64,000 nucleotides of DNA from an uncultured cyanobacterium (lineage in GTDB: Bacteria > Cyanobacteriota > Cyanobacteriia > Cyanobacteriales > CAWUOF01), in contig CAVUSO010000001.1 in assembly GCA_963744145.1 (NCBI GenBank), forward strand, positions 224,001 to 288,000, written 5' to 3'. The notes beneath the pieces are model-generated. The model worked only from the letters and a program-made list of their open reading frames with translations. It was not told where the DNA came from and did no database searches. Below, piece by piece: positions 45,049 to 60,848 of this stretch. Position numbers and translations under genes: made by a program. Each line of letters starts with the position of its first letter. The stretch's first letter is position 1.

Positions 45049-45507
45049 TTACCCAAGCGATCGCCCTTCTTGCAAATCCCACAAAAACCACGAATTTTCA
45101 ACAACTGTATATTTACCAATAACACTCAATGGTAACACTTCCCCACTCCCAAGCACATCAACAGAAATTCCATCTCGAATCATAATTTTAAACACTTCAT
45201 TCCTACATTCAATTAAGCTTGCATCTAGTTCAAGAATTTGACCCTCTTCATTCAATACACCCAGTAAATCTGAAGTAGATAAACTAAATACATCTTGAGT
45301 ATTACCTTTCTTAGTCAACTGATCGCCACTCTTTCCAGTAGCATCAATAGCGGAAATCAACTATTCATTAGATAGAGGATAATTTTCAGCTAAATATTCA
45401 ACAATTTTAGCAACTCTGGATTCTATTTTTTCCTGTTCTTCACAGCAGAGTGTAATGGCCCACTTTTGCCTAGCATTTTGGATCAAAGTAGAAGTTTGAG
45501 ATTTCAT
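45049..45507 (-). pseudogene. Inactivated copy of the putative immunity gene at 47751-48188
   Basis: Near-identical DNA; TGG to TAG stop at 45361-45363. Confidence 0.85.
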
Positions 45508-45587
45508 AATGGTTCTGGTATACTATTTCTAGTAGGAGTTACACCAGTAATATTTGGTATCCACCTATATTGATGAGGTGACAGGCA
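45504..45587 (-). pseudogene. Internally deleted remnant of the toxin gene at 48185-48505
   Basis: Keeps only the PHQYRWIPNITGVTPTRNSIPEPL tail, joined to the upstream region. Confidence 0.75.
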
Positions 45588-45636
45588 ATCTAATTTTATT
45601 ATTTTGAGGTAGTCCACTTAATTAGTTTATCACTTA

Positions 45637-46437
45637 TTGGAAAAAAAGCTGATGTTAAAAATTATTAACTGTCCCACAACCGTTGCAGTTAAAAAAACTT
45701 TTTCGATTACAGGAAAAGTTGACCCTATTCATATTGGTAGATACTTGTTATTAAACATAGACAACCAAATTAGTTTGACCGGACCATTAGTAACCGAGAC
45801 TGGTTCTTGGGAAATAGATATAGCATTTCGTCAAGCAGGTAATCATCGGATAGAAATTACCCTTGATTGTGAAAAAAATCAAGTAATAATTCAGGTTATT
45901 AACGAAATATTATCGGAATATTCGGGAGATATTGTCCTATTTTATCTTAGTCAAAAACCCAACTTTCAGGGACGGATGATTGATGAAATTTGGTCTTGGG
46001 ATTATCAAAAACTTGAATATGTCCATAATTATATTCAGTGGCTTTTTCCAACACTCGGAAAAAGTCGCTTCAACCCAACTGTACCTACTTTAAATAGTGA
46101 AACTATTCAAGCTTTCCGAACTCATGAAGAATTAAAATTACGTTTATTCAAATCTTTTAAAATTATGCTCAAATTTTATGGGCTAGAATGTAATAAGTGG
46201 GACAGTCCTGAAATTAAAATTATCAAATCTGAAGAATATCAATCGAGAAAGAATAATTGGATTACTAAAGGAAATCATAACTATCTGCGGATTACTCGAA
46301 TTATTAGTTGCTTAAATACTCTGGGATTAAACAAATATGCACGGGCTTTTTTCCAATGTTTAACACTGATCTACCAAGAAGAAAAAACTAACATTAGTAG
46401 TGATACTTTTATGTACTGGCAAAATGCTATCAAGTAA
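45637..46437 (+). CDS. OGFr (opioid growth factor receptor) conserved-region protein with N-terminal beta-rich domain
   Basis: LEYVHNYIQWLFP, MLKFYG, NHNYLRITRII. Confidence 0.8.
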   Translation: MEKKLMLKIINCPTTVAVKKTFSITGKVDPIHIGRYLLLNIDNQISLTGPLVTETGSWEIDIAFRQAGNHRIEITLDCEKNQVIIQVINEILSEYSGDIVLFYLSQKPNFQGRMIDEIWSWDYQKLEYVHNYIQWLFPTLGKSRFNPTVPTLNSETIQAFRTHEELKLRLFKSFKIMLKFYGLECNKWDSPEIKIIKSEEYQSRKNNWITKGNHNYLRITRIISCLNTLGLNKYARAFFQCLTLIYQEEKTNISSDTFMYWQNAIK

Positions 46438-46472
46438 TACTGATTAAGCTTACATTTGCCCCTAAGCACCCT

Positions 46473-46808
46473 TTAACTAACCGCAAATTCTGTGTATTTT
46501 CTCATTTCTGGGGAACGGAATCCCAAAATAATTCTATCTTTGGGGATTCCAGCATTGAGAAATTCGTTAGCAATTCCATCTTCCGTACCATCTCGATGAA
46601 TCCAAATTTTTCCATCGATAATTTCTACATGAATTAAACAACCGTGAACTTGTCGCACGTCCTCCCAACCCAAAATCATGAGCAGATAGCGATCGCTTTG
46701 GGGATCAAATACCGGATGTCGCTGAATATCTCCATAAGCGTAGGGTATTTGAGCATATTCGGTAATGATCGAACAGATAATTTGACGGTACTTTTCTAAG
46801 CTATCCAT
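46473..46808 (-). CDS. xisI: XisI family protein
   Basis: HGCLIHVEIIDGKIWIHRDGTEDGIA..GIPKDRIILGF. Confidence 0.92.
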   Translation of the reverse strand: MDSLEKYRQIICSIITEYAQIPYAYGDIQRHPVFDPQSDRYLLMILGWEDVRQVHGCLIHVEIIDGKIWIHRDGTEDGIANEFLNAGIPKDRIILGFRSPEMRKYTEFAVS

Positions 46809-47212
46809 TTCAAAATTACCTCCTTTTGAGGTTGAAAAACCATGAGCTTTACCCGATTATTCCTAAGTAATAGCTTACCAATAGGTTCTTCAAATAATCC
46901 TTCATATATTTCATGATGAACCGCAACATAAAGTTCTCGCTCTGGTTCGATTTCTGCTAAAACATCATGATACACAATATACTGACCAATTGCTTTTTCT
47001 AGTTCGTTCATTTCTGATGCACCTATAAAGCTTTTGATTTCTACAGCAATTTTACGTTCAGCTTTTTCAGCAGCGATGAGTTTTTGAACCCCTAAATCTA
47101 CATACATATCCTTAGTACCCCATTTTAGGGTAAGGGGATCGTGAGTAATTGTCCAGTTATCTTTAAGTAAAGCATTTTTGACACAGTTGTGGTAAATGTC
47201 TTTAGCAGGCAT
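46796..47212 (-). CDS. xisH: XisH family protein
   Basis: MPAKDIYH..WTITHDP..KIAVEIKSF..AIGQY. Confidence 0.92.
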   Translation of the reverse strand: MPAKDIYHNCVKNALLKDNWTITHDPLTLKWGTKDMYVDLGVQKLIAAEKAERKIAVEIKSFIGASEMNELEKAIGQYIVYHDVLAEIEPERELYVAVHHEIYEGLFEEPIGKLLLRNNRVKLMVFQPQKEVILKWIA

Positions 47213-47261
47213 AATTATAATCTTTGAGTTCAGCTTCAGAGCGTGAATTTTATGGTAAAAA

Positions 47262-47671
47262 TTAAATGAGGGTTATGGCAATACGGTTCGTTTAAGGATG
47301 TTTTGGGAGATATCAACAAAGAAGGGTGAAGCATTCGGATCTAATATTACTCGTGTGAGCGTTCAATTGTCGCCCGAATGCTTCACCCCTACAACTAACC
47401 GAACCGTATTGAGGGTTATGGGGCACGATCGCAGGTTAGCGCGGATTTGCTCTATAGCTGTAATCCCATCTACAACCTCATCTCGTTGGGATGCTTCCCA
47501 ACCAAGCATTGCGTCTCGCTGGAGTTCAGGAAGTCGTCCCTGATCAATATCTTCTTGCTGTTCGAGTAGTTGAATTCCTGCGAGAATGACTTCGATCGCG
47601 CTTTTATATTTGCCACTCATCAGGTGACGCTGTACGAGGGCTTCGGCTTTAGGTGATCAAACAATTTGCAT
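47262..47671 (-). pseudogene. ParD-like (RHH) antitoxin pseudogene
   Basis: MQIV*SPKAEALVQRHLMSGKYKSAIEVILAGIQLL; TGA at codon 5; MITE inserted near the 3' end. Confidence 0.6.
47279..47411. mobile_element. 133-bp MITE with perfect 10-bp target-site duplication (Nezha-like architecture)
   Basis: TIR CAATACGGTTCG/CGAACCGTATTG; AGGGTTATGG at 47269-47278 and 47412-47421; inner hairpin related to the tandem-array unit. Confidence 0.88.
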
Positions 47672-47750
47672 GGTGTTTGAGAGAATAGGAGTTGATTTTA
47701 TTATAGGCGATCGCCTTTTTTATTCTATCTTACCCAAGCGATCGCTCTGC

Positions 47751-48188
47751 TTACAAATCCCACAAAAACCACGAATTTTCAACAACTATATATTTACCAA
47801 TAACACTCAATGGTAACACTTCCCCACTCCCAAGCACATCAACAGAAATTCCATCTCGAATCATAATTTTAAACACTTCATCCCTACATTCAATTAAGCT
47901 TGCATCTAGTTCAAGAATTTGACCCTCTTCATTCAATACACCCAGTAAATCCGAAGTAGATAAACTAAATACATCTTGAGTATTACCTTTCTTAGTCAAC
48001 TGATCGCCACCCTTTCCAGTAGCATCAATATCGGAAATCATCCATTCATTAGATAGAGGATAATTTTCAGCTAAATATTCAACAATTTTAGCAACTCTGG
48101 ATTCTATTTTTTCCTGTTCTTCACAGCAGAGTGTAACAGCCCACTTTTGGCTAACATTTTCGATCACAGGAGAAGTTTGAGATTTCAT
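47751..48188 (-). CDS. Putative immunity protein
   Basis: Acidic 145-aa ORF translationally coupled (ATGA) behind the toxin-like ORF. Confidence 0.6.
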   Translation of the reverse strand: MKSQTSPVIENVSQKWAVTLCCEEQEKIESRVAKIVEYLAENYPLSNEWMISDIDATGKGGDQLTKKGNTQDVFSLSTSDLLGVLNEEGQILELDASLIECRDEVFKIMIRDGISVDVLGSGEVLPLSVIGKYIVVENSWFLWDL

Positions 48189-48505
48189 AATGGTTCTGGT
48201 CTGTTATTTCTAGTAGGAGTTCCACCAGTAATATTTGGTATCCACCTATGTTGGTGAGGTGGTGATAGATGATCTGGGCGAAGATTACCATTAGGATAAG
48301 TAGGACTGGTAAAATCTAAATCTCTCACAGGCTGTCCAGACGCATCAAATTCTCGCATCTGATAAATCCTCTGGTTATAAGTATCCCATCTTAATTGAGA
48401 GTGCGGTCCTCTAGCATTTGGATCTGGCTTTGCTTCTCCAAGTCTAGGTGGTAGCTGGCTTTTAAGTACAAGTGTACCATCTGCATAGCGCGAGTGGACT
48501 GACAA
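48185..48505 (-). CDS. Stand-alone polymorphic toxin domain (Ntox24-like)
   Basis: PDPNARGPHS, REFD..GQPVRDLDFT, PHQH, NITGGT..R..PEPL pattern; TTG start. Confidence 0.65.
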   Translation of the reverse strand: MSVHSRYADGTLVLKSQLPPRLGEAKPDPNARGPHSQLRWDTYNQRIYQMREFDASGQPVRDLDFTSPTYPNGNLRPDHLSPPHQHRWIPNITGGTPTRNNRPEPL

Positions 48506-52303: not shown

Positions 52304-53755
52304 TTACAAATCTTTGCGCCAGAAAAGAGACTCCCAACGTCGTCCTAAAGATACGACTTTAACCATCCACACCCCCTCACTAAACCCAAATGCTGGGAGA
52401 TGACCTTTTGGAGCAGTTAGGTTAAATGTTAGGGCAATATATAATAACCAGTTTTTTCCCTTTCTCCATCCCACTTGATCACCAAATTTATCTCTTATTT
52501 GATCATCTGCATTAAGATGACCTCCCACATCCTTACTTTGCCAGAGGTTTTTTTGCACACTAAAACCAAAATGACCAAGCGAGTATTTCACCCATAACTG
52601 ATCTATAGTGTGAAGGTCTTTACTCGGAAACTTTAACCAATCATTACTATCGAGATATCCCTCTCTTTCACGATGAGCAGCTTTAAGTAAAAGACGGTAA
52701 GTTTTCTCATCAGCTTCTTTCCACTTTCCCGCAGCTAAGAGGTCTTGGAGAGGAGTGTAATCTATATTCTTTTGACTTTCGAGAGTAATTTGAAATTGGG
52801 TCGCTGTTGATGATTGATGAATTTGGGTTTTAAGTATTGATGGGTTAAATATTGATGGTTGAGGTCTTAATTTAACATTAAGTTCTTGCCATATTTCCTG
52901 AGCAGATTTATAGCGATCGCTCAAAGGAAGCGAGATCATTTTATCTAAGATCATCCCTAAATCATCACTAATATTAACATATTGTCGCCATACCCATTTC
53001 ATCTCATTAAAATCAAACAAATTATCTATATAATTACAATTTTGTTTGTGTAATAAACAACCTGTCAAAAGCCTAATACAAGTTACCCCTAAACTATATA
53101 TATCACTAGCTGGAAAAGCTTGACCCTGCATTTGTTCTGGAGCTGCATAACTCAGAGTACCAGTTACAGTACCCATACTCATCATTACCGCATCGCTTAA
53201 TTGCTTAGATACTCCAAAATCAATTAACATCAAACAATTATTTATATCTCTAATAATATTATCTGGTTTAATATCTCTATGGATAATATTATTTTTATGG
53301 ATAAAGTCTAAAACTGGGAGAAGTTGACTTAATAAATCTATGATCTGTTCTTCATCAAATTTTCCTTTTTGTTGTAATTCTTTCAATAAATCTTTTCCGT
53401 CGATAAATTCTTGGATTAAATATAAGTGTTTATCTTGTTGAAAGAATGCTAATAAGTCAGGTATTTGGGGATGTTTACCTAAATCTTTTAACCTAATTGC
53501 TTCTTTTTTAAATAATTCTGTTGCTTTTAGTAATTCTTCACTTTCTTGCAACTGAGGTAGAAATTGTTTGATCACACAAAATGTATCTAGTCGTTGCTCA
53601 TCTATGGCTTTGAAGGTTCTCCCAAAACCACCCTTTCCCAGAAATTGCAATGCTCGATAGCGATCGCCCAGCAATAACCTATTCCCACAGAACTGACAAA
53701 GCTTGATCTCAGGTGGGTTGATGTTCTCACATTCAGGGTTTAGACATAGACTCAT
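52304..53755 (-). CDS. Ser/Thr kinase with C-terminal GUN4 domain
   Basis: CLNPEC Zn-like start, GKGGFG, HRDIKPDN, DFG; DYTPLQDLLAAGKWKEAD, IDQLW, GHFGFSVQ, GHLP. Confidence 0.92.
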   Translation of the reverse strand: MSLCLNPECENINPPEIKLCQFCGNRLLLGDRYRALQFLGKGGFGRTFKAIDEQRLDTFCVIKQFLPQLQESEELLKATELFKKEAIRLKDLGKHPQIPDLLAFFQQDKHLYLIQEFIDGKDLLKELQQKGKFDEEQIIDLLSQLLPVLDFIHKNNIIHRDIKPDNIIRDINNCLMLIDFGVSKQLSDAVMMSMGTVTGTLSYAAPEQMQGQAFPASDIYSLGVTCIRLLTGCLLHKQNCNYIDNLFDFNEMKWVWRQYVNISDDLGMILDKMISLPLSDRYKSAQEIWQELNVKLRPQPSIFNPSILKTQIHQSSTATQFQITLESQKNIDYTPLQDLLAAGKWKEADEKTYRLLLKAAHREREGYLDSNDWLKFPSKDLHTIDQLWVKYSLGHFGFSVQKNLWQSKDVGGHLNADDQIRDKFGDQVGWRKGKNWLLYIALTFNLTAPKGHLPAFGFSEGVWMVKVVSLGRRWESLFWRKDL

Positions 53756-53793
53756 AAAACTTCATCAAGCTCTTGACAAATAATCTGAACTTA

Positions 53794-55398
53794 TTATATC
53801 TTGCAGGTTACAAGTCTTTGCGCCAGAGAAGAGACCCCCAACACAAAAAACCACCACCAAACCCAACCACACCCCAACACCGGAAGATGGCCCATAGGAG
53901 CATCGGTGTTAAAAGTTAGGTCATCATAGCTCTTCCAAGTGCCTCCTTTTCTCCATCCTAACTTTTCCACAAATTTTATTTCGATCTCTAGTCTAGCTTT
54001 GGAATCTCCACCCACATCCTTACTCTCCCAGATCTGTTTTTGAACGCTAAACCCAAAATGACCATCAGAATATTTTACCCATAACTGATCTATAGTGAGA
54101 AGGTCTTTACAGGGAAACTTTAACCAATTATCACCATCAAGATATTTCTCTTTTTCACGATTAGCAGCTTTAAGTACAAGTCGATAAGTTTCCACATCAG
54201 CCTCTTTCCATTTACCAGCAGCTAATAAGTCTCGGAGCGGAGCATAATCTATATTTCTTTCACTTTCAAGAATAATTTGATCTACAGATTTATTGAATGG
54301 ATCAGAACTATTGAATAGCCAGTTAAACAAATTATTTTGTTTTTCGTTTATTGTTGGTTCTAAAGGATCTGGTAATAATTGGAAATTCGATTTTTGTGAT
54401 AAATTTGTCTCTAAATTACTAGCCAAATTAATGGTTTTCTGCGCTGCTGTTGGTGGATAATATATACCTCTTAATGGCGAAACTGGTTTGGGATGTTTTA
54501 GAATTGATTGCCCTACTTCTGATCTTTGAAGTGCTTGCAATACTTCGGCAGCAGATTGATAGCGATCGCCCATAGAAATCGATAACATCTTATCTAAGAT
54601 CAACCCTAATTCATCACTTATATTTGCTTGCGATCGCCAGATCCATTTCTGATTTATGGGATCAAATAAATTATTGACAAAAGTATGGTTTTTAATTGCT
54701 GGAAAACAACCTGTTAATAGTCGAATACAAGTAACACCTAAACTGTATATATCACTAGCAGGGTAAGCATAACCTTGAAGTTGCTCCACAGCCATATAAC
54801 CTGGAGTACCCGCTAAAGTTCCTGCTTCGACCTTTAAAGTATCACTTAATAGCTTAGATACACCGAAATCTATTAGTATTAATGAACCACTATTATGTCT
54901 AACAATATTATCTGGCTTTATATCTCGGTGAATAACATTATTTTGATGAATAAATATTAAAACAGGAAGAAGTTGATTTAATAGATCTATAATTTTTTCT
55001 TGACTAAACTTTCCTTGTTCTTGTAATTCCTCTTTTAAATCTTGTCCTTCGATAAATTCTTGGACTAAATATAAATGTTGATCTTGGGGCAGAAATGCCA
55101 ATAAGTCTGGGATTTGCGGATGTTTCCCTAAATCGCATAATCTCATAGCTTCTTTTTCAAAAAATTCAGCATTGTTATTTTCTTGTTGCTCAATAGAAAA
55201 CTGTTTAATAACACATGGAGTTTTAAGTCTATTTTCGTCTATAGCTTTAAATACTCTACCAAAAGCACCAGCACCAATTAACTTTACTGCGCGATAACGA
55301 TCATTTAGTAAAAGGTTGCTTTTACACTTAGAGCAAGATTTTTGATTAAGTGGGTTAAAATATCCGCAACATGAGTTTAAACATAAACATTGTTCCAT
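53794..55398 (-). CDS. Ser/Thr kinase with C-terminal GUN4 domain (paralog)
   Basis: Same architecture; GAGAFG, HRDIKPDN, DFG, GUN4 motifs. Confidence 0.92.
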   Translation of the reverse strand: MEQCLCLNSCCGYFNPLNQKSCSKCKSNLLLNDRYRAVKLIGAGAFGRVFKAIDENRLKTPCVIKQFSIEQQENNNAEFFEKEAMRLCDLGKHPQIPDLLAFLPQDQHLYLVQEFIEGQDLKEELQEQGKFSQEKIIDLLNQLLPVLIFIHQNNVIHRDIKPDNIVRHNSGSLILIDFGVSKLLSDTLKVEAGTLAGTPGYMAVEQLQGYAYPASDIYSLGVTCIRLLTGCFPAIKNHTFVNNLFDPINQKWIWRSQANISDELGLILDKMLSISMGDRYQSAAEVLQALQRSEVGQSILKHPKPVSPLRGIYYPPTAAQKTINLASNLETNLSQKSNFQLLPDPLEPTINEKQNNLFNWLFNSSDPFNKSVDQIILESERNIDYAPLRDLLAAGKWKEADVETYRLVLKAANREKEKYLDGDNWLKFPCKDLLTIDQLWVKYSDGHFGFSVQKQIWESKDVGGDSKARLEIEIKFVEKLGWRKGGTWKSYDDLTFNTDAPMGHLPVLGCGWVWWWFFVLGVSSLAQRLVTCKI

Positions 55399-60371: not shown

Positions 60372-60848
60372 TTAATCGGTAATTTGGACACTACCAACGA
60401 GAATCAGACAAAGGAGACGGTCGATCGCTTTGCAATCTTCTTCAGTGATCGATTCATCTAAAAGTGCAGCGGTGATTCTATACCAATCAGACTTTCTCAC
60501 TGTCTGGGTTGTCCCAATATTGGCCACAATTTGGTTAACTTTTGCCCTGATTGTCCCCTGAGTAGTCCCCTGAGTAGTCCCCTGAGTAGTCCCCTGAGCT
60601 TTACCCTGAGCTTTACCCTGAGCTTTACCCTGAGCTTTACCCTGAGCTTTACCCTGAGCGTAGTCGAAGGGGGAGTCGAAGGGGGAGTCGAAGGGGGAGT
60701 CGAAGGGGGAGTCGAAGGGGGAGTCGAAGGGTAGACTTACACTGAGGGTCGTCGAAGTGGTCAAAGGACAGGATGAAAGAGTGTACTTACACTGAGCGTC
60801 ACCGAAGTAGTCAAAGGGTAAAATCGAAGGATGGGAGATTTGAAGCAT
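60372..60848 (-). CDS. Small cyanobacterial hypothetical protein expanded by in-frame repeat insertions
   Basis: C-terminus AALLDESITEEDCKAIDRLL...GSVQITD looks like a real small-protein family; the middle is PFDS/AQGK/TQGT repeat. Confidence 0.6.
   Translation of the reverse strand: MLQISHPSILPFDYFGDAQCKYTLSSCPLTTSTTLSVSLPFDSPFDSPFDSPFDSPFDSPFDYAQGKAQGKAQGKAQGKAQGKAQGTTQGTTQGTTQGTIRAKVNQIVANIGTTQTVRKSDWYRITAALLDESITEEDCKAIDRLLCLILVGSVQITD
60541..60818 (-). repeat. Nested stack of 24-nt SDR-like elements and 12-nt half-repeats
   Basis: Six left halves (60588-60659) abut six right halves (60660-60731); further diverged copies near 60736-60759 and 60786-60809. Confidence 0.9.

Follow-up and report, generated by a model that had tools for sequence, protein, structure and literature searches.

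A G/T-rich variable loop at the ends of cyanobacterial GUN4 genes and its probable rewriting by a facing Y1 HUH transposase

What could write a stretch of protein-coding DNA in G and T alone? The question is raised by a gene for a Pkinase and GUN4 fusion protein in the window, that is, the whole 64,000-nt stretch of DNA from an uncultured cyanobacterium that was analysed here. On the coding (minus) strand, only G and T occur over 48 nt (53834-53881) and A is absent over 68 nt (53820-53887), while A makes up 34% of the whole gene; the bias reported for this A-rich gene by the sequence-only reading is confirmed. The tract is translated as VLGCGWVWWWFFVLG, directly after the residues GHLP. Its length exceeds chance expectation: in 7.7 Mb of genome there are five runs of at least 30 nt made up of G and T alone, four at GUN4 ends and one in a Thr-Pro repeat, and three 500-nt block shuffles of chromosome C1 gave no such run, the longest being 23-26 nt. 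A contig of run X1, which may be the source sample, has 0 differences to the window over 53665-53932, so the tract is no assembly error. No variant of the tract was seen in X1 at a depth of about 5; within-population variation of the insert was likewise not seen in X1, where the contigs were the material searched. The features are listed in Table 1.

Table 1. Features at the two kinase-GUN4 genes (window coordinates).
Feature	Position	Strand	Basis
Ser/Thr kinase-GUN4 gene, 534 aa, carrier of the tract	53794..55398	-	ORF, domain search, GUN4 model
Codons for GHLP, bounding the variable insert on its 5' side	53881..53892	-	alignment to solved GUN4 ends here
Variable insert, 46 nt, all G/T; codes for the model's low-confidence loop	53835..53880	-	
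Conserved DNA block, read in this copy as SSLAQRLVTCKI and a stop	53794..53834	-	
Initial 66 nt of the element (~125 nt) by which the block is normally joined to the motif and the facing transposase	53768..53833	-	
Second kinase-GUN4 gene, 483 aa; starts 39 nt past the stop of the first gene	52304..53755	-	
Insert of the second gene, 63 nt, unrelated to the first, 73% G+T	52331..52393	-	
Block of the second gene, in another frame, SLFWRKDL and a stop; downstream motif absent	52304..52330	-	

The tract is one member of a family. There are 54 GUN4 matches in the genome, of which 50 were examined and four short fragments left out. A GHLP-type anchor followed by a loose match to the downstream block was obtained for 39 of the 50, and 32 remained after seven were dropped as false block matches. 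All 32 carry G/T-rich inserts of 31-159 nt between GHLP and the block (A14 C9 G43 T34), so the cassette had rightly been called hypervariable and is common to other GUN4 genes, and the proposed comparison of all GUN4 3' ends puts the bias at the block-bearing ones. Twelve GUN4 ends without the block have an ordinary composition with no bias, and the canonical GUN4 copy (C1:1114726) retains a normal end and lacks the block. In eight of nine paralog pairs the inserts were only as alike as shuffled sequences, at flank identities of 92-96% upstream and 94-97% downstream. The window insert and that of its closest paralog, a pair picked post hoc, have 20 of the first 24 nt in common, the four differences all being between G and T, which suggests that replacement is not always total.

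The block is kept as DNA and is read in all three frames, as SSLAQRLVTCKI, LFSRKDL or FSRAKTCNL, each followed by a stop, so that every insert length yields a closed protein end. The insert lengths fall into the three frame classes as 15, 9 and 8 of the 32. In the window copy the second frame reads SLLWRKDL and a stop, and the usual stop of the third frame is gone. Among 401 genomes of the phylum, 27 have GHLP codons followed by 20 G/T positions, against 1 in a reversed control, and the block is present in 92 of the order's 301 genomes; the genome collection held no same-genus relative of the genome studied here (G000). Two further arrangements in this genome deserve mention. A 1066-aa protein (G000:C1:7458283-7460436, minus strand) has four tandem GUN4 domains with 92-96% upstream identity and a different insert in every one, which looks like a record of successive insert states. 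At G000:C1:7020200-7020720, about five repeats of 85-87 nt are arrayed near several GUN4 genes.

The insert falls at a telling place in the protein. Our model of the GUN4 domain reaches a TM score of 0.84 to the porphyrin-bound structure 4xkc, and the insert is its sole low-confidence part (pLDDT 68 and 58, residues 131-150, against 85-98 before it). Sequence similarity to solved GUN4 stops at GHLP, just before Arg214 and Arg217, which are placed at the porphyrin pocket in the available text of PMC1084334. Compared with the canonical GUN4 described there, window-type ends have the same core fold, conserved through GHLP, and carry the variable insert in place of the Arg214/Arg217 stretch of the porphyrin-binding loop. 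The replaced segment corresponds to the R214/R217 end of the alpha6/alpha7 ligand-pocket loop; as the insert replaces this loop end, the likely output is a sensor repertoire with varied binding surfaces, and we infer that the ligand surface is changed. In the available parts of PMC7159879 and PMC8195603, GUN4 is counted among the effector domains of conflict systems and a variable end is not described.

Across 113 inserts the base mix is A14/C10/G42/T33 and is the same at each codon position. In-frame stop triplets number 8 where 101 would be expected, out-of-frame ones are near expectation, and TGG is enriched in frame. A bias independent of codon position, with stops purged in one frame only, argues for a G/T-rich supply that was filtered once, in the current frame. 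At fourfold sites, G stands at 147 of 388 positions in the inserts against 134 of 1307 upstream. Local 11-mer copies number 117, against 14 +/- 8 by chance, and are often copies of the GHLP codons or of the block start; fold-back copies of the flanks are not enriched in the inserts.

A partner gene was found on the other side of the block. At two loci (L034 and L057) an intact Y1 transposase stands tail-to-tail with a GUN4 end. With these two as queries, the best 80 of 161 genome matches and the best 80 of 334 metagenome matches were taken. A GUN4 end was faced within 900 nt by 109 of the 120 loci in this best-match sample that have at least 900 nt downstream of the transposase, and by 24 of 26 loci in a second sample, both shares being upper estimates because the queries came from GUN4-facing genes; GUN4 lay upstream of the transposase at 0 of 123 loci of the best-match sample. 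In 96 of 108 loci, the distance between the start of the block and a motif, (A/T)TACCTG, is 112-113 nt. Among ORF clusters at the transposase loci, GUN4 fusions occur at 113 loci and an antisense ORF cluster at 28; no third gene, for instance one for a polymerase, recurs next to the transposase, the remaining clusters occurring at no more than 11 of 160 loci.

Residues H74, H76, Y136, N140 and P141 are invariant in 69 of 69 transposase sequences. The protein has an HUH motif, a catalytic Tyr within Y---NP and a modelled Y1 fold whose top match is 4er8, the E. coli TnpA-REP; Y---NP is given as the signature of class 2 RAYT proteins in the available part of 10.1101/279083. Going by its conserved residues and predicted fold, the partner is a Y1 HUH transposase of the RAYT/TnpA-REP class 2 type. 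Matches of the model to Thg1 were taken to reflect a common palm-like fold and not as evidence of a polymerase, and a PDB sequence search with a two-sequence transposase profile gave no match. We found no conserved RNA or ssDNA structure or REP hairpin in 55 downstream spacers, the upstream side being checked by eye, no clear helical periodicity of spacer conservation, and no copy of the transposase in viral contigs. A TA about 81 nt before the motif, considered as the cut site, is present at 96 of 100 GUN4 loci but is shifted or variable in picocyanobacteria and absent at cyanobactin targets, and is therefore not established as such.

Convergent orientation and a conserved spacer of fixed length thus characterize the family, while the window copy has lost both the (A/T)TACCTG motif and the facing transposase. 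Its element still matches, at 55 of 66 nt, the copy at C1:378986, which retains the motif and a transposase relic. Five other GUN4 ends of this genome face transposase relics. The only near-full transposase in the genome carries an insertion of 8 residues, meets a stop close to its end, and stands opposite a gene for a peptide precursor rather than GUN4. Because its motif is lost, the window copy is likely a frozen product of the diversification system, although a transposase may act on it in trans.

Two pairs of loci with transposases 100% identical over 650 nt carry unrelated inserts, of 68 and 126 nt in L183/L184 and of 49 and 109 nt in L191/L194. In five of six disjoint close pairs the inserts were no more alike than shuffled sequences, and one pair kept similarity. 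The facing gene varies chiefly in its 3' segment, with divergence rising toward the insert (0.17, against 0.04 in the transposase; six pairs); a G-biased substitution process upstream of the insert was considered, and the six pairs gave no clear spectrum. Genus g55 has an orphan GUN4 end with neither motif nor transposase, whose G/T-rich insert is 31 nt long in 17 of 17 genomes and shows 94% identity among them, whereas the motif-bearing facing locus has seven alleles of 30-126 nt at 36% identity (36.5% when shuffled), five of these seven being metagenome contigs assigned by flank similarity. Upstream flank identity is 86% among the facing alleles and 95% at the orphan locus, which may be under purifying selection of its own. 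In genus g33, too, four orphan copies differ very little from each other. The contrast between orphan and facing ends is the best evidence that the partner matters, and it comes mainly from one orphan locus. As the insert is variable opposite the transposase and fixed in the orphan, we see the transposase rather than a retroelement as the likely driver of the rewriting.

In L194 and in L188/L196, patches rich in G and an inserted TGG are present 5' of GHLP, which suggests that the rewriting process can reach past the GHLP anchor. In L108, L236 and L252 an N-run or contig end falls exactly within the insert, as expected if there is variation inside the sampled population.

We argue that the ligand-pocket loop of these GUN4 domains is probably rewritten, free of any template, by a process that the RAYT-type enzyme initiates. 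The pairing, its spacing, the replacement of inserts, their free length, local recopying, a supply independent of frame, selection in frame and the three-frame tail are all observed. In the mechanism that we propose, the Y1 HUH transposase, lying tail-to-tail with the GUN4 gene, would bind near the motif and nick the DNA; a host polymerase would refill the loop segment upstream through slippage, renewed copying of nearby sequence and addition with poor templating; and the cut would be resealed by the transposase or by repair. Selection would then retain the fold up to GHLP together with the three-frame tail, and finished ends could duplicate onto other kinase, TIR or caspase-type fusions and freeze when the motif is lost. 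The scheme is made plausible by E. coli TnpA-REP, which in vitro cleaves and religates DNA at a distance of hundreds of bases from its own site (PMC3333891). We offer a wider form of this proposal tentatively, as a little short of an even chance: a domesticated HUH transposase triggers template-free rewriting comparable to N-addition in antibody CDR3, as a third kind of cyanobacterial diversification besides DGRs (diversity-generating retroelements) and cassette shuffling, in which any insert length is made viable by the three-frame tail and a single enzyme family diversifies GUN4 sensors as well as cyanobactin and prochlorosin cores.

It is also conceivable, though we think it unlikely, that the transposase merely mobilises the GUN4 3' cassette or hitch-hikes with it, and that the loop changes through slippage and recombination between paralogs under selection for Gly, Trp, Val and Phe, with frameshifts smearing the bias over codon positions. 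The restriction of the bias to GUN4 targets, the in-frame selection for Trp, the many local duplications and the presence of the block in 55 of 239 genomes that have no transposase match would all fit. Against this reading, the out-of-frame stop triplets stand at chance and indicate filtering in one frame only, G is in excess at fourfold sites, and the G/T-rich orphan loop of genus g55 is stable. Sister alleles tried as mosaics of one ancestor had no excess of k-mers in common, and a silent donor cassette was not found in the genome.

Capture by the transposase of foreign or distant pieces of ssDNA, in the manner of spacers, with selection keeping the A-poor ones, we regard as distinctly improbable. 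In its favour, HUH enzymes join a free 3'-OH to a phosphotyrosine end, and recombination of linker sites by E. coli TnpA-REP has been seen in vitro (PMC3333891). Some inserts look complex, and 14-mers of the inserts match their own genome slightly more often than shuffled ones (201 against 153 +/- 13). Against it, 5 of 1797 18-mers of the 32 own-genome inserts recur elsewhere in the genome where 1.4 would be expected, and they come from two inserts. A phage origin, tried for three inserts against 50,697 phage records, gave chance-level matches only, and a G content of 42% is unlike host DNA.

Still less credence is due to a DGR reverse transcriptase (RT) writing the G/T sequence, either by copying a template or by acting in trans once the transposase has nicked the DNA, an explanation that is largely refuted. 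DGR RTs prefer inserting A and C opposite a template A, and the loss of A and C from the inserts fits this preference. The likeness to a DGR that was noticed at the tract is nevertheless unsupported, as the genome has no template, lengths are free and most carriers of the system lack the RT; the reservation expressed with it, that the case is atypical of classical DGRs, was well placed, insert lengths occupying all three frame classes. The suggested template search, run as an A-tolerant genome scan in fixed-length and anchor-bounded form, yielded no template: the best non-self match had 15 non-A mismatches and no homology, no A-rich stretch lay between anchors, and the sequences that match the variable region are GUN4 paralogs only. 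Length-preserving, A-specific substitution is not what is seen: inserts span 31-159 nt, alleles are unalignable, and G and T are themselves rewritten. The target has a GUN4 fold, and not a C-type lectin or Ig-like one.

The window holds no RT, as had been stated, and the three RVT_1 matches of the genome lie megabases away: one RT beside cas1, one of 494 aa, and one truncated. Their labels (beside cas1, among defence-like genes, DGR-like) were assigned by inspection, and the truncated one is putatively DGR-like by its motifs. In the first (L001, G000:C1:5091854) cas1 is directly 3' of the RT gene; the second (L002, G000:C1:3189610-3191088) stands alone, adjoining defence-like genes; the third (L003, G000:C1:5012059-5012883) is flanked by repeats. 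An intact DGR-type RT is absent from this genome, the truncated fragment having neither template nor target as a neighbour. Of the 300 other genomes of the order, 62 have full-length relatives. Of 301 genomes, 62 have the transposase and 239 do not; a DGR-type RT is present in 20 of the former and in 43 of the latter, a weak excess among genomes that are related to each other. Against a role for them, an RT is present at 1 of 190 transposase loci, and 23 of 37 genomes with a near-full-length transposase, four of the 23 being in one or two contigs, have no match to the DGR-like RT. Genome G168 has several G/T-only ends and a single RT, which is broken.

That the tract arose through an error of sequencing or assembly, or is low-complexity coding sequence of an ordinary kind, is scarcely credible, for although G-rich low-complexity runs are error-prone and L108 has its N-run exactly at the insert, the X1 contig is identical, the tract is open in frame, and the pattern recurs across the phylum far above its reversed control.

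The enzyme family is not confined to GUN4. Where the transposase stands opposite something other than GUN4, the target is a cyanobactin-type precursor, so labelled from its FAGDDAE end; in six of eight precursors, 143 nt separate the motif from the end of the core. In picocyanobacteria, the same enzyme family is present in 17 of 151 genomes, and the (A/T)TACCTGGCAC motif is also found 3' of procA genes carrying the hairpin of Laurenceau et al. The variable zones of the picocyanobacterial and cyanobactin targets are not G/T-rich. The bias, missing at these targets, therefore belongs to the GUN4 target and not to the enzyme alone.

That procA faces tnpA-REP in marine picocyanobacteria was reported by Laurenceau et al. 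(bioRxiv 10.1101/2020.03.09.984088), who called the association unique to picocyanobacterial lanthipeptides and made no mention of GUN4; a later note to the preprint (10.1101/2020.03.09.984088) says that phylogeny gives no strong evidence for or against causation. The two systems have the enzyme family in common (39-47% identity to the GUN4-facing protein), the tail-to-tail layout, a conserved spacer, 3' transposase relics beside orphan targets, variation limited to the 3' part of the target and the (A/T)TACCTGGCAC motif. They differ in that the GUN4 target is a loop within a folded sensor domain and procA a free peptide core, and in that the GUN4 form has a three-frame tail that makes any length viable, a G/T-rich fill and no hairpin; the target is a GUN4 domain and not a lanthipeptide precursor, and an intergenic hairpin was not found. 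The procA-tnpA-REP pairing is thus already published, as a preprint, and the GUN4 form was not found in the literature searched: among the papers listed, in a search mostly outside subscription papers and preprint supplements, none concerns a variable GUN4 end or a pair of GUN4 and transposase.

Two other known systems resemble this one in part. Cyanobacterial DGRs with kinase-CLec remote targets, as far as the available part of PMC7517822 describes them, likewise have a ligand-binding 3' end that varies on kinase and other signalling fusions, numerous dispersed paralogs and an A-poor variable region; unlike them, the GUN4 form has no template or linked RT, is free in length and has the GUN4 fold, and GUN4-like is named in that part of the paper solely as an accessory domain. 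The RAYT/TnpA-REP proteins that act with REP/BIME, so far as the available parts of PMC3333891 and 10.1101/279083 cover them, share the Y1 HUH fold and the class 2 Y---NP signature, and the GUN4 partner appears from its sequence to have a C-terminal extension as in subclass 2.1 (10.1101/279083). Both are proposed to diversify linker DNA near the binding site, while the GUN4 partner would act beside protein-coding sequence and its spacer has no REP hairpin.

Bacteria are known to have few mechanisms for diversifying a single selected part of a gene. The GUN4 system works with no RT or template and with length free, and seems to need one 260-residue enzyme and a cis element of ~125 nt. It gives a direct test, in culturable filamentous strains, of how prochlorosin and cyanobactin cores become hypervariable, and it suggests that the large cyanobacterial families of kinase, TIR and caspase-GUN4 proteins are variable receptors and not simple tetrapyrrole sensors. 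The system could become a compact tool for randomising a loop in vivo, and if a template-free mechanism were proven, it would be a new class of diversification.

Some smaller observations were made along the way. By inspection, L064 (2000-2460) and L066 (G000:C1:6188110-6188272; about 7135200-7135400) have small double-glycine-type peptide precursors next to peptidase-ABC/HlyD transporter genes; these precursors face a transposase or its relic and carry the motif, and their upstream zones are A/C-rich, the opposite bias. Picocyanobacterial transposases at L286, L288, L289, L292, L300, L302 and L305 face a second small-gene family, which has a short conserved stretch followed by a variable zone with local duplications. 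Elsewhere in the window (45049-48505), near-duplicate short ORFs (45049-45360 and 47751-48188) lie behind small ORFs that by inspection resemble polymorphic-toxin tips and immunity genes, and an ORF on the minus strand at 60372-60848 has three successive arrays of 12-nt repeats (SPFD, AQGK and TTQG).
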